From the NCBI RefSeq assembly GCF_006345805.1, contig NC_043000.1:20522001-20586000 (forward strand): DNA of 64,000 bases, read 5' to 3'. This document shows, in pieces, positions 1 to 55,005 of the stretch (positions are counted from its first letter, which is position 1; each line of letters starts with the position of its first letter). The notes below the pieces were generated by a model that saw only the letters and a list, made by a program, of their open reading frames with translations, ran no database searches and was not told where the DNA came from. The stretch comes from Octopus sinensis. Taxonomy: Eukaryota. Position numbers and translations under genes: made by a program.

Positions 1-93
1 CCAGACCTCTGTCAAATCGTCCAACCCATGCCAGCATGGAAAGCAGACGTTAAACGATGATGATGATAATTGTCCTCATCTTGTTTGTTGTTA

Positions 94-137
94 ACACAAT
101 GTTTTGGCTGATATACCCTCCAGCCTTCATCAGGTGT
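94..137 (-). ncRNA. Minimal hammerhead-like motif, inverted copy (decayed)
   Basis: ACAC-CUGAUGA-A-GGCUG..CAGCC-AAAAC-AUU-GUGU. The G12 to A change is at a CpG. Confidence 0.5.
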
Positions 138-312
138 CTTGGGGAAATTTTAAACTTGGGTTCTCATTCCTAGTGGTTAAGAGTGCAGGCTACTAACCCC
201 AAGATTCCAAGTTTGTTTCCAGACAGTGACCTCAATAATAATAATAATAATAACAACAACAACATCGAAAAATACCTTAGAAATGAGAACCCAGGTTCCA
301 AATTTCCCCAAG

Positions 313-356
313 GCACCTGATGAAGGCTGGAGGATATATCAGCCGAAACATTGTGT
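313..356 (+). ncRNA. Minimal hammerhead-like motif (decayed)
   Basis: GCAC-CUGAUGA-A-GGCUG(10 nt)CAGCC-GAAAC-AUU-GUGU. The sister copy at 7141-7184 has GUU at the triplet. Confidence 0.6.
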
Positions 357-521
357 TAACAACAAACAAGATGATGACAAATATCCATCAAAGGTAAATA
401 ATGTATATAATTCCTCATATCTTAAATATAGAACTGTAATATTATAGATACTTATTTCAAAATTTTTATTTTGCTTATCAAACTATGTAAAACATCAAAT
501 ACATTTAAAGCAAAATTTTTT

Positions 522-7091: not shown

Positions 7092-7344
7092 TATATTATT
7101 CATATTTGATGGATATTTGTCCTCATCTTCTTTGTTGTTAAAACAACGTTTTGGCTGATATACCCTCCAGCCTTCGTCAGGTATCTTGAGGAAATTTCGA
7201 TCCTGGATTCTCATTCCTAAGGTATTTCTCAATGTTATTATTATTACTATTATTATTATTGTTCAGGTCACTGCTTGGAATTGAACTCAGAATCTTGGAG
7301 TTAGTAGCCCTCGCTTTTAACCACTACGCCATATGCCCATGGGC
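7092..7344 (-). mobile_element. tRNA-head plus (AAT)n plus hammerhead-tail element
   Basis: A box TGGCGTAGTGG and B box GAGTTCAATTCC, then an AAT run, then the hammerhead motif. Confidence 0.7.
7141..7184 (-). ncRNA. Minimal hammerhead-like motif (decayed)
   Basis: AUAC-CUGACGA-A-GGCUG..CAGCC-AAAAC-GUU-GUUU; same family as 313-356. Confidence 0.5.
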
Positions 7345-7811
7345 CTATTATTTTTTAAATAATCATAAAGTAGTAGTAGTAGTATCGAAGCATGAGCTGT
7401 AATGGTATGTCACTGCATCAATCATTTGTCAGTGATCCCCTATTCCCAATGGATTACACTTTTGCACCACAAAGGCAACAATCCTCCAACCCATGGGTCT
7501 GTTTCGAGTAGTCATCACTGGTGAGGGTTTTATGAAGTCAGAGTACAAATCCTATGTCAGCCCCTTTTACAACTCGCAAAGGAATCATTAGATATATTTT
7601 TTTTTTTATATACCAGTCCCCACACAGCACTTGATTGACATGAAATAAAGTGTTTTGTTCAAGAGCACAACATACCACCCAGTCCAGGAATTGAACCCAT
7701 TGTCTAGTGATCATGAGTGCCACTCCTTAACCATTAGGACATGTGTCTTCATGGTCAAAGAATAAAAATATGTTTGGCTGTGAGTGTTCATACTTATTTA
7801 TTTAATAATAT

Positions 7812-10747: not shown

Positions 10748-11009
10748 ATTATAAATTAGGGTATCTACGAGATACCACCATGCTGAAAATAGCAGCCATG
10801 ATCTGACTCTAAAACCACCTTAAGTGTCCATATAGCAACATGGAGAGAAGACAAAGAGACAAGATGAAACACGGAAAAAATTACAGGTTTCATCTTGTCT
10901 CTTTGTCTTCTCTCCATGTTGCTATATGAACACTTAAGGTGGTTTTAGAGTCAGATCATCGCTGCTATTTTCAGCATGGTGGTATCTCGTAGATACCCTA
11001 ATTTATAAT
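10748..11009. repeat. Near-perfect 123-bp inverted repeat with 16-nt loop
   Basis: Arms 10748-10870 and 10887-11009; two mismatches seen. Confidence 0.95.
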
Positions 11010-48589: not shown

Positions 48590-49183
48590 ATATGTGTGTA
48601 TCTATATATATATTATATATATATATATATTTACATGTATATATCTATAATATATATGTGTATATCTATAATATATATGTATATATTTATATACATATAT
48701 ATTCATATATACATATGTAGTTATATATCTTTATATACATACATATATATGCGTGTATACATACATGCATGTGTGTGTGTATTCACATGCACACACACAT
48801 ATATATACATATAATATAGATATGTAGACATAATATTTATATATATATATATACATATCTGTATGTATGTGTGTATATATGTATGTATACACACATGCAT
48901 TATGTGATAAATTTTATATCTAACTGTTGTTATCAAAAACAACATTGGCAGCTTGGATGGCTTTACAATACTACAAAATATTAATTATGTAATACGAACC
49001 GTAACAAAACTTCTTAGCTTTTGTACATATATATGTGAATATACACACATACATGTATGTACATGTATATATATGTGTGTGTATGAGTGCATATGTAAAT
49101 ATATGTGTGCGTGTATGTACATATATATATTTACACATGTGTGTGTGTATATATATATATCTATATCTATATATATATATATC

Positions 49184-49223
<40 letters not shown>

Positions 49224-51290
49224 TGCAAGTACATATACATATGCATATATATGTGTGTATTTGCATGTGTGTATATACACAGACATCTCAAAAGTAAACA
49301 GGCATCATTATTTTTGATGCATACTTGAAGCTCTATGTAGTGTTTGCACAGATAAAACAGTATCACATTGGGTGTCTATTTACTCTTAAGATATATGTGT
49401 ATATAATTATGTGTGTTTATATATGTATATATATGCATGTGTGTGTATGTATATATATATATATGGGTGTGTGCATATGTATATATGTATGTAGATACAT
49501 ATATATATATATATGCATGTGTGTATGTATTTATGTATGTATCTATGTATTTATATATATGTATGTATATATGTATGTATATATATATATATCTATATGT
49601 ATATATGTATCTATATGTATGTATATATATATATATCTATATGTATGTATATATATATATATCTATATGTATATATGTATCTATATGTATGTATATATAT
49701 GTATCTATATGTATATATGTATCTATATGTATGTATATATATGTATCTATATGTATGTATATATATGTATCTATATGTATATATATATATCTATATGTAT
49801 ATATGTATCTATATGTATGTATATATATGTATCTATATGTATGTATATATATGTATCTATATGTATAATATATTATATGTATATATGTATCTATATATGT
49901 ATGTATATATATCTATATGTATATATGTATGTATATATATCTATATGTATATATGTATCTAATATATATATGTATGTACATATGTATCTATATATATATA
50001 TGTATGTACATATGTATCTATATATATATATGTATGTACATATGTATCTATATATATATATGTATGTACATATGTATCTAATATATATATGTATGTTATA
50101 TGTATCTAATATATATATGTATGTAATATGTATCTATATATATATGTGTATATAGTATCTATATATATATGTATGTATGTATATATGTATCTATATATAT
50201 ATGTATGTATGTATATATGTATATATGTATCTATATATATATGTATGTATGTATATATGTATCTATCTATCTATCTATATATATATATATATGTATGTAT
50301 ATATGTATCTATCTATCTATCTATATATATATATATATGTATGTATGTATATATGTATCTATATGTATGTATGTATATATGTATCTATATATATGTATGT
50401 ATATATGTATCTATATATATGTATGTATATATGTATCTATCTATATATATATATATATGTATGTATATATGTATGTATATATGTATCTATCTATATATAT
50501 ATATGTATATATGTATGTATATATGTATCTATCTATATATATATATGTATATATGTATGTATATATGTATCTATCTATATATATATATGTATATATGTAT
50601 GTATATATGTATCTATCTATATATATATATGTATGTATATATGTATCTATATATATATATATATGATGTATATATGTATCTATCTATATATTATATATGA
50701 TGTATATATGTATCTATATCTATATATATATTGTATGTATATATGTATGTGTATATATGTATGTGTATATATGTATGTATATATATGTATCTATATATGT
50801 ATCTATATATATGTATCTCTATATATGTAATGTATGTATATGTGTATATATGTATATGTATGTATATGTGTATATATGTATATGTATGTATATGTGTATA
50901 TATGTATATGTATGTATATGTGTGTATATGTATATGTATGTATATGTGTATATATGTATATGTATATGTATATGTATATAATAGTATATATATATGTGTA
51001 TGTATTGTATATATATGTATATGTGTATTATATGTGTATGTATATATTATGTGTATATATGTATGTATATAGTATGTGTATATATATATGTATGTGTATA
51101 TATATGTATTGTTATATATGTATGTGTATATATGTGTTATGTATATGTGTATATATATGTGTATGTATATATATATGTGTATATATGTAGTGTATATATA
51201 TATGTGTTATATATATGTATGTATATATGTATGTATGTATATATGTATGTATGTATATATTATGTATGTATATATATATGTAATTATATA

Positions 51291-51322
<32 letters not shown>

Positions 51323-51342
51323 GTATGTAGATATATGTATGT

Positions 51343-51378
<36 letters not shown>

Positions 51379-51462
51379 TGTATGTATGTAATATATATGT
51401 ATTATATATATGTATGTATGTGTATGTATGTATATATATATTATGTATGTAATATATATATG

Positions 51463-51494
<32 letters not shown>

Positions 51495-51500
51495 TGTATG

Positions 51501-51540
<40 letters not shown>

Positions 51541-51608
51541 TGTATGTATGTATATATGTATGTATGTATATATGTATGTATATATGTATGTATGTATATA
51601 TGTATGTA

Positions 51609-51644
<36 letters not shown>

Positions 51645-53565
51645 TGTATATATATATGTGTATGTATGTATGTATATATATATGTGTATGTATGTATGTA
51701 ATATATTGTGTATGTATGTATGTATATAATATGTGTATGTATGTATGTATATATATATGTGTATGTATGTATGTATATATATATATGTTATGTATGTATG
51801 TATATATATGTGTGTATGTATGTATTTATGTATGTATCTATGTATTATATATATGTATGTATATATGTATGTATATATATATATATCTATATGTATATAT
51901 GTATCTATATGTATGTATATATATATATATCTATATGTATGTATATATATATATATATCTATATGTATATATGTATCTATATGTATGTATATATATGTAT
52001 CTATATGTATATATGTATCTATATGTATGTATATATATGTATCTATATGTATGTATATATATGTATCTATATGTATATATATATATATCTATATGTATAT
52101 ATGTATCTATATGTATGTATATATATGTATCTATATGTATGTATATATATGTATCTATATGTATATATATATATATGTATATATGTATCTATATATATGT
52201 ATGTATATATATCTATATGTATATATGTATGTATATATATCTATATGTATATATGTATCTATATATATATATGTATGTACATATGTATCTATATATATAT
52301 ATGTATGTACATATGTATCTATATATATATATGTATGTACATATGTATCTATATATATATATGTATGTACATATGTATCTATATATATATATGTATGTAT
52401 ATATGTATCTATATATATATATGTATGTATATATGTATCTATATATATATGTATGTATATATGTATCTATATATATGTATGTATGTATATATGTATCTAT
52501 ATATATATGTATGTATGTATATATGTATATATGTATCTATATATATATATGTATGTATATATGTATCTATCTATCTATCTATATATATATATATATGTAT
52601 GTATATATGTATCTATCTATCTATCTATATATATATATATATGTATGTATGTATATATGTATATATGTATGTATGTATATATGTATCTATATATATGTAT
52701 GTATATATGTATCTATAATATATGTATGTATATATGTATCTATCTATATATATATATATATGTATGTATATATGTATGTATATATGTATCTATCTATATA
52801 TATATATGTATATATGTATGTATATATGTATCTATCTATATATATATATGTATATATGTATGTATATATGTATCTATCTATATATATATATGTATATATG
52901 TATGTATATATGTATCTATCTATATATATATATGTATGTATATATGTATCTATCTATATATATATATATGATGTATATATGTATCTATCTATATATATAT
53001 ATGATGTATATATGTATCTATCTATATATATATATGTATGTATATATGTATGTGTATATATGTATGTGTATATATGTATGTATATATATGTATCTATATA
53101 TATGTATCTATATATATGTATCTATATATATGTATATGTATGTATATGTGTATATATGTATATGTATGTATATGTGTATATATGTATATGTATGTATATG
53201 TGTATATATGTATATGTATGTATATGTGTATATATGTATATGTATGTATATGTGTATATATGTATATGTATATATGTATATGTATATTATATGTATAATA
53301 TATGTGTATGTATATGATCTATATGTATATGTGTATATAATGTGTATGTATATATATATATGTGTATTATGTATGTGTATATATATATGTGATATATATA
53401 TGTATGTGTATATATATGTATGTGTATATATATGTATGTGTATATATGTGTATGTATATGTGTATATATATGTGTATGTATATATATATGTGTATATATG
53501 TATGTGTATATATATAGTGTATATATATGTATGTATATATGTATGTATGTATATATGTATGTATG

Positions 53566-53615
<50 letters not shown>

Positions 53616-55005
53616 ATGTATGTATATATGTATATATATATGTATGTATGTATGTATATATATATGTATGTATGTATTATATATATATGTATGTATATTA
53701 TGTATATATGTATGTATGTATAATATATTATGTATGTATATATTATGTATGTATATATGTATGTATGTATATATGTATGTATGTATATATGTATGTATGT
53801 ATATATATAATGTATGTATATATATGGTATGTTGTATAATGTATATATATATATGTATATATATGTATGTATATATTGATATATATATATGTATATATAT
53901 GTATATGTATCTATATCTATATGTATGTATGTATGTATATATATATCTATATGTATTATATGTATATTATCTATGTATATATATCTATATGTATATATAG
54001 TATATATATTATGTATATATATGTTATCTATATGTGTATATATATCTATATGTTAATATATGTATGTTGTATATATATGTATGTATTATATATGTGTGTA
54101 TATATATGTATGTATATATATATGTATGTATAATATAGTATGTATATATATATGTATGTTATATATAGTATGTATATATATATGTATGTATATATATGTA
54201 TATGTATATGTATGTATAGTATATATATATGTATGTATGTATATATATATGTATGTATATATATATGTATGTATGTATATAGTATGTATATATATAGTGT
54301 ATGTATATATATCTATATGTATATGTATGTATGTATATATATCTATATATATGTATGTATGTATATATATCTATATGTATATGTATGTATGTATATATAT
54401 GTATATGTATGTATGTATATATATCTATATGTATATGTATGTATGTATATATATCTATATGTATATGTATGTATGTATATATATCTATATGTATATGTAT
54501 GTATGTATATATATCTATATGTATATGTATGTATGTATTATAATCTATATGTATATGTATGTATGTATAATATCTATATGTATATGTATGTATTATATAT
54601 ATTCTATATGTAGATGTATGTATTTATATATCTATATGTATATGTATGTAATGTATATATATCTATATGTATATGTATGTATGTATATTATCTATATATA
54701 TGTATGTATGTATATATATCTATATGTATATGTATGAGTATGTATATATATCTATATGTATATGTATGTATGTATATATATCTATATGTATATGTATGTA
54801 TGTATATATATCTATATGTATATGTATGTATGTATATATATCTATATGTATATGTATGTATGTATATATATCTATATGTATATGTATGTATGTATATATA
54901 TCTATATCTATATGTATGTATGTATATATATCTATATGTATATGTATGTATGTATATATATCTATATGTATATGTATGTATGTATATATATATATATATA
55001 TATAT
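48590..55005. repeat. ~6.4 kb compound TA/TATG/TATC simple-sequence array
   Basis: Directly visible; ends in a regular 30-bp unit at ~54720-54990. Confidence 0.97.

Follow-up and report, generated by a model that had tools for sequence, protein, structure and literature searches.

A Penelope-like element of Octopus sinensis whose pseudo-LTR opens with a decayed tRNA-Arg(ACG) sequence, a likely source of SINE-like short copies

Two insertions of one repeat family

The window, meaning the whole 64-kb stretch of Octopus sinensis DNA analysed here, holds two insertions of one family, locus A and locus B. The initial annotation had described a common order of tRNA-like head, (AAT)n linker and tail at both loci, and this was confirmed, as 171-406 on the plus strand and 7326-7091 on the minus strand align at 84% identity over 236 nt (E 3e-70). 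The inverted tail copy described at locus A was also recovered: 61-172 matches 278-390 at 91% in the alignment, and an inverted-repeat search returned arms at 65-172 and 278-385 (108 nt, 92%). The features are listed below, with the support for each in brackets; pLTR stands for the pseudo-LTR of a Penelope-like element (PLE) and TSD for target-site duplication.

Just upstream of the window, past the inserted repeat, minus strand: short 3' end of the inverted arm of insertion A (L061)
1-70, plus strand: 3' end of an unrelated abundant repeat with many copies in the window, splitting the inverted arm (matches of 1-70 across the window)
61-172, minus strand: inverted second arm of insertion A, pLTR tail with hammerhead G12 changed to A (alignment, inverted-repeat search, L061 matches)
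171-436, plus strand: forward copy of insertion A (alignment)
171-232, plus strand: tRNA-Arg(ACG)-derived head of insertion A, tRNA positions 13-74 only, lacking 1-12, B box broken (nhmmer with a 70-head profile, E 6e-18)
234-262, plus strand: (AAT)n/(AAC)n linker of insertion A, from head to start codon (sequence)
283-438, plus strand: 52-codon open frame of insertion A, N-terminus of the PLE protein, through ribozyme and tail (continuation in L099, same stretch coded by homolog P0004)
312-357, plus strand: minimal type I hammerhead of insertion A, core from 317, predicted cut after 352 (motif and pairing)
402-436, plus strand: Penelope 'tail' extension of insertion A, the long 3' end, about 30-35 nt past the short end (bimodal 3' ends)
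437-446, plus strand: right copy of the 10-bp TSD of insertion A, the left copy lying upstream of the window (L061 860-960 against 1620-1690)
7338-7092, minus strand: insertion B, single copy (alignment)
7339-7345, minus strand: short palindromic leader of insertion B (sequence)
7264-7338, minus strand: tRNA-Arg(ACG)-derived head of insertion B, full length, both boxes (A and B) intact (nhmmer, E 4.5e-24)
7235-7263, minus strand: (AAT)n linker of insertion B (sequence)
7092-7234, minus strand: pLTR tail of insertion B, short 3' end (alignment)
7214 and 7185-7140, minus strand: start codon and hammerhead of insertion B, G12 changed to A (alignment)

The inverted arm of locus A extends upstream beyond the window start and is interrupted by the other repeat (L061 895-928). 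The forward hammerhead consists of a stem I, a core followed by an additional A, a stem II of 5 bp and a stem III that has no loop and is palindromic, except that an A at 350 breaks the palindrome. The core is broken in all three window copies, which read GAAACATT and, twice, CAAAAC. Insertion B has a single arm, and comparison of its locus flanks gave no convincing TSD. Elsewhere in the window, 10800-10957 forms a near-perfect hairpin (~55-bp arms, 47-nt loop), possibly a small MITE-like element, and 48600-55000 is taken up for ~6 kb by a degenerate (TA/TG) satellite whose GC skew is strong, the source of most spurious Rfam miRNA matches.

The unit is the terminal repeat of a coding element

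Directly upstream of the unit, a stretch coding for a GIY-YIG endonuclease (EN) was found in two of the 29 other full-length matches. A search with this stretch returned 30 loci with 5' ends about 50 to more than 1,200 nt upstream of the unit, and in 29 of the 30 the unit follows the endonuclease stop codon (27 with the head, two with the tail part only). The longest copy, L092, spans ~2.3 kb and carries PLE reverse transcriptase (RT) and EN motifs in broken frames. Searching with the 5' part of its ORF gave another set of 30 loci, with the 3' part of the unit contiguous upstream in 22, a count in which four loci are one insertion and L106 was scored as a miss through wrong orientation. The layout is head, (AAT)n, ATG, a hammerhead within the first codons, tail, ORF, stop and the next head. 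Partial tandems occur as well, with pLTR tandem junctions in L112, L118, L124 and L395.

The tail encodes the first ~52 residues of the protein straight through the ribozyme, as in the open frame at 283-438 of the window; the equivalent frame in L099 continues for 320 codons, and the intact homolog P0004 codes for the same residues across the ribozyme. A total of 266 homologs of the element protein were found, including an anole protein, P0033, at 39% identity and the intact P0003 and P0004. The RT domain matched RVT_1 at E 3e-6, below the Pfam cut-off; GIY-YIG was not reported by the Pfam scan, and the EN was seen through 29% identity to P0033 (E 1e-22). RT and EN stand in order in the decayed natural copies L091 and L092. 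Inspection by eye of L092, L093, P0003 and P0004 found CCHH in the C-terminal EN and no CX2-5CxxC Zn-finger linker, features that point at the sequence level to the Penelope/Poseidon clade. No ORF was intact among the fetched copies (the longest stop-free stretch was 320 aa in 12 loci scanned), and therefore no master was identified.

By the features tested, the unit is the pLTR of an EN-containing (EN+) PLE. An autonomous RT and GIY-YIG Penelope element sharing the tail, for which the initial annotation had advised looking, is represented by the decayed copies L091 and L092, and the proposed mobilisation by a Penelope-like RT is supported by the RT and EN motifs of natural copies and by the Penelope-type ends of inverted pairs. 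The idea of a non-autonomous SINE with a borrowed tail is not supported, since head plus tail make up the terminal repeat belonging to the element with RT plus GIY-YIG, and the tail is coding. The same annotation had allowed that the unit might simply be the terminal repeat of an already catalogued Penelope family; the terminal-repeat part stands in substance, while catalogued status lies outside this comparison. The SINEBase definition (PMC3531059, partial text) asks for a head that stems from a Pol III RNA and carries internal boxes, which the unit has, and for independence, which it lacks, being its partner's terminal repeat, coding for the partner's N-terminus and showing no solo lineage in a comparison of low power. 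By this independence test the unit is not a SINE, although its short copies resemble one and probably come about in a similar way.

Six loci (L110, L112, L117, L119, L122, L399) leave the ORF ~400-450 nt past the tail and resume in the pLTR, which could reflect repeated jumping at one point or else amplification of a deletion derivative. In L120, at about 1185-1330, a ~150-nt GC-rich piece is inserted just before the start codon of the junction copy.

A tRNA-Arg-derived head and the size of the family

A profile of 70 heads aligned best with host tRNA-Arg(ACG), over positions 2-67, gapless and in register, at E 1e-6 against E 0.01 for the next-best isoacceptor; the comparison set was an incomplete one of 27 distinct host tRNA sequences from eight isoacceptors, to which Arg(ACG) had been added as a deliberate choice. 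The suggested tRNA origin of the head was upheld in this way. The A and B boxes of the heads match the consensus, the B box being intact in 43 of 70, whereas the acceptor and T stems no longer pair. With default settings ARAGORN called no tRNA in the window or in 170 loci; its relaxed-score calls (14 and 67) were of mixed isotypes and were set aside for isotype assignment.

Head and tail travel together, as the initial annotation had expected. The tail lies near the head in 60 of 70 head loci and, in four of the five followed further among the other ten, beyond an insertion in the (AAT)n, so a free head-only SINE was not found. The linker is expanded or holds other insertions in many family copies. 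One ~630-nt element occurs in the (AAT)n tracts of three independent family copies (L414 675-1304, L415 671-1366, L416 675-1969), twice in tandem in L416, and seems to target the (AAT)n microsatellite. As regards host genes, the interval G000:C2:3121912-3162240 (L375-L383) is a tandem array of ~90 tRNA-Arg(ACG) gene matches, mostly at ~206-bp spacing, so that the isoacceptor from which the head likely derives is itself strongly amplified; L360 holds a tRNA-Cys gene cluster, one member with an ACA anticodon. Among metagenome PLE relatives, many of them contigs without a pLTR, no convincing tRNA head was seen on the sense strand.

The full-length query gave 6,176 candidates in the 2.72-Gb genome; the best-scoring 40 of these all span head and tail, a bias expected from such a query. 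A 23-nt head motif has 3,632 exact genomic matches and a 35-nt hammerhead core pattern 1,999, each with none for the reversed control. In the first 73 Mb of contig 1, coincidence of 4 of 70 head loci and 38 ribozyme matches suggests a family of very roughly 2-4 x 10^4 loci. Exact pLTR-ORF junctions number 76 genome-wide against the 3,632 head matches, the two patterns differing in length.

The hammerhead does not appear to set the insert ends

In the family hammerhead, stems I and II are each 5 bp long, stem I including one G-U pair; besides the core there is one extra A, stem III is a palindrome without a loop, and H17 is U. The core proposed from the three broken window copies is real family-wide: besides the exact matches given above, it is intact in 27 of 64 aligned arms of a head-anchored sample. 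The two CpGs are the most decayed columns of that alignment, in line with the earlier remark that most core defects are of CpG type. Scoring by Rfam did not bear the hammerhead out, as neither a tRNA nor a hammerhead family was matched on the two intact units tested or among the 150 of 214 window matches listed; the hammerhead in the pLTR is recognised by motif and pairing, apart from any Rfam model score. An unconstrained cofold did not produce the ribozyme dimer.

An origin of insert 5' ends at the hammerhead cut was not supported. Among 395 arms exactly four start at the predicted cut, no more than background, and seven start at 88-93 where about seven are expected, so there is no excess. 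The 3' ends cluster ~50-64 and 80-84 nt past the predicted cut. For the anole element it has been reported that hammerhead cleavage in vitro required protein and was dispensable for insertion (PMC11167929). The octopus hammerhead is likewise predicted to require a partner or protein.

Insertion ends and template starts

The 98 distinct head-to-head pairs comprise 83 with long/short 3' ends, five short/short, three long/long and seven others. A flanking repeat of at least 8 bases is present in 66 of the 98, against 2 controls, and TSDs are 8-15 bp long. In general the 3' ends are bimodal, at tail positions 140-154 and 170-174. The tail of anole Poseidon was explained in vitro by two internal RT start sites, one of them 111-118 nt into the ORF, and the RNA had to extend to +172 (PMC11167929). 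In the protein alignment the octopus long 3' end falls on the codon that aligns with this anole site, P0033 being equated with the anole PAc by inference from its start and cut spacing. If the anole mechanism is conserved, copies without a linked ORF (solos) would end ~55 nt short of a usable template.

Turning to 5' ends, 52 of the 70 copies in the head-anchored sample have theirs at -9..+3 relative to tRNA position 1, and 18 extend more than 40 nt upstream into the EN (15 by an ungapped test, three with indels); the sample was taken in genome order and is blind to starts past +3. Seventy ribozyme-anchored arms, classed by hand, complement it: 30 have their 5' end in the tail or (AAT)n, 11 at +16..+50 and 24 at -16..+13, and five pass. 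Accordingly, of the 29 arms reaching +13, 24 stop within -16..+13 and the other five drop out gradually across 570 nt; loss at the head start proceeds at roughly 10x the rate inside the head and 20x that upstream. A palindrome lies exactly at the 5' end, with fold-back products in 7 of 55 copies, and part of the pile-up could be an RT stop at this palindrome.

Thirty of the 76 exact pLTR-ORF junction loci were sampled. In seven, ORF sequence is joined to a head starting at -12..+7 (two share one junction), as would be left, judging from the sequences, by template jumps at an RNA 5' end. Moreover, L406, L407 and L409 begin at the head and run on into the ORF, and L421 and L107 begin at the head and end within the ORF with TSDs of 10 and 11 bp; flank comparison gave no clear TSD for L419 and L420. 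These loci indicate that head-started RNAs entering the ORF served as templates.

Polymerase

A and B boxes and starts just ahead of tRNA position 1 fit transcription by Pol III. On the sense strand, 61.6 kb contain 15 runs of at least four T (T4) versus 359 of exactly three, and no T4 is common to more than three of 28 copies. L092 has no T4 run where about three are expected (10 and 4 of 200 shuffles were as low), while control PLE loci (34 examined of 79 fetched) are mostly near expectation. T4 depletion is nevertheless weak as proof of Pol III, since a headless control family with a T-rich pLTR (L268, L271, L276) also has no T4 in its ORF against 2.2-3.1 expected. This family, known from metagenome contigs (L268, L271, L272, L276, L290), is young, 93-97% alike, and combines the T-rich pLTR with a minimal hammerhead, an inverted arm with tail and a nearly T4-free ORF. 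One raw RNA run of a related species gave equal strands with 79% of reads running into unlike flanks, which fits read-through, and contained no start pile-up.

It is tentatively conceivable, though doubtful, that Pol III makes the whole ~2.6-kb coding RNA, uncapped and translated from the AUG just upstream of the hammerhead, a Pol II promoter having been replaced by the captured tRNA-type promoter. If true, the element itself and, in tens of thousands, its SINE-like copies would stem from a single promoter, with SINE and partner in one unit.

Proposed origin of the short copies and alternative explanations

The reading we prefer, at a probability of about 0.7, is that the unit is the pLTR of an RT and GIY-YIG element of Penelope/Poseidon type with a decayed tRNA-Arg(ACG) start, and that the short copies likely derive from head-started RNAs, probably made by Pol III. 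A tRNA-Arg or tRNA-SINE piece would once have been captured between the stop and start codons and may now provide an internal A/B-box promoter. Transcripts of ORF-linked masters starting at the head would extend into the ORF, and the element protein would start cDNA synthesis from two internal sites close to the pLTR-ORF junction, the way anole Poseidon does in vitro (PMC11167929). Priming at the first junction would leave only ~250-280 nt to be copied back to the RNA 5' end, yielding a SINE-looking solo, and priming at a later junction would yield 5'-truncated ORF and pLTR copies; two cDNAs, one per target strand, joined head to head would yield the inverted pairs. The anole mechanism is here extrapolated to the octopus element across 39% identity.

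A first alternative treats the head as a passenger or mere Pol II start region, with Pol II transcription as in D. virilis Penelope and an RT brought to a stall or a fold-back by the palindrome and the tRNA-like structure. The coincidence of palindrome and 5' pile-up speaks for it, as do fold-back products in many best-scoring copies besides the 7 of 55, the TATA-less, LINE-like internal promoter of D. virilis Penelope (PMC2377424, partial text), the view of Kojima that Pol III lacks the processivity an autonomous element would need (PMC10886601, partial text) and the T4-free ORF of the headless control family. Mere stalling would not readily account for ends spread over -9..+3, most of them without fold-back, or for jumps to ORF sequence at the same point; A and B boxes have been kept where the acceptor and T stems were lost, and the octopus pLTR has no shared T4 where control pLTRs (L265, L268 family) are T-rich. 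We consider this alternative unlikely.

Rather improbable, too, is a modified form of the original model, by which the solos are an independent Pol III SINE amplified from solo masters with the PLE protein borrowed in trans. The great excess of exact head matches over pLTR-ORF junctions, read with their differing pattern lengths, would suit it; many solos retain both boxes, and animal retrozymes have been proposed as pLTR derivatives (bioRxiv 10.64898/2026.07.22.740005, partial text). It would, however, predict a solo lineage, and none emerged: there is no solo-private variant in 281 arms, four non-CpG variant columns occur in solo and ORF-linked copies alike, and the shared variants preserve the reading frame. 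Median divergence is 4.4% for solo and 5.7% for ORF-linked copies. A tree built from 49 linked tails and from 60 of the 125 solo ones was star-like, with 38 label changes versus 36 after shuffling, although 174 columns and five starred branches give it little power. In addition, the RNA required by the anole RT reaches ~55 nt past the point where solos end (PMC11167929), and most pairs carry long ends, which a short-ended solo cannot give. The SINE-looking copies, in their thousands, are probably by-products of the element's own RNA and not a separate parasite. Lastly, retrozyme-type propagation through hammerhead-released tandem or circular RNA monomers is scarcely credible: a minimal hammerhead and a few tandem or permuted copies (L250, L390/L391) are present, but copies are dispersed solos or inverted pairs without arrays, their 5' ends show no excess at the cut and their 3' ends cluster past it, and anole insertion in vitro is independent of hammerhead cleavage (PMC11167929).

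Significance and comparison with known systems

Little is known of the PLE promoter and transcription cycle except in D. virilis. In the octopus element the template start can be placed at a captured tRNA head by thousands of insert 5' ends, and its long 3' end coincides with the site primed in vitro by the lizard element, so that both ends of a PLE template become readable from a genome. Should Pol III drive the coding RNA, this would go against the stated Pol II expectation for autonomous retroelements and raise the question of cap-independent translation. For repeat libraries, the family indicates that 'tRNA SINEs' can be misfiled PLE termini.

The closest relatives are the Penelope/Poseidon EN+ PLEs, such as PAc of Anolis carolinensis (PMC11167929; PMC8557442, partial text). 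The octopus element resembles them in its single ORF with RT and C-terminal GIY-YIG, in which no Zn-finger linker was seen, in pLTRs at either end, whose minimal hammerhead overlaps the start of the ORF, and in the 30-40-nt tail at one end and the inverted 5'-truncated arm. It differs in that the pLTR opens with a tRNA-Arg-derived A/B-box head and (AAT)n, and in that Lys replaces the usual Ile of YIG in the EN motif. With the metazoan PLE minimal hammerheads of Cervera and de la Pena (2014; PMC4209133, partial text) it shares a helix I of 4-5 bp, one additional unpaired base ahead of helix II, a loopless helix III and occurrence mostly as single copies or as opposite-strand pairs 100-700 bp apart, whereas a 5-bp helix II, U at H17 and a preceding tRNA head set it apart. 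What is new is that a captured tRNA-Arg head lies where the template starts; the rest fits an EN+ PLE. No description of a tRNA-headed pLTR was found in the literature searched, including PMC13282606, PMC3531059, PMC7229834 (partial texts) and the PLE passages compared; Repbase, Dfam, most subscription papers and supplements, which could include the family, lay outside that search.

Terminal repeats with a promoter of this kind have precedents among the TRIMp3 elements Cassandra, Helenus and Ajax (Kojima, 2024; PMC10886601, partial text), where a small-RNA-derived Pol III promoter, non-functional as tRNA and perhaps from a SINE insertion, lies in the terminal repeat. Those are non-autonomous LTR elements, whose autonomous partners are expected to use Pol II, whereas the octopus head belongs to the repeat of a PLE that codes for protein. 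The non-LTR retrozymes of animals (PMC7229834; bioRxiv 10.64898/2026.07.22.740005; both partial texts) are also short, hammerhead-bearing, pLTR-related sequences and often monomers; the octopus units differ from them in not being tandem, in ends that are not at the cut and in the tRNA head. Finally, the schistosome repeats Sm-alpha and Sj-alpha (PMC6765202, PMC2770079; partial texts) already unite a Pol III-type tRNA-related promoter and a hammerhead within a single short repeat, so that novelty does not lie in the pairing as such. Theirs are canonical hammerheads, tandem, released by cleavage and described, in the text available, without a coding partner, whereas in the octopus the unit forms the coding end of the RT element to which it belongs. 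A tRNA-headed pLTR is a plausible first step toward tRNA-hammerhead SINEs of the schistosome type.
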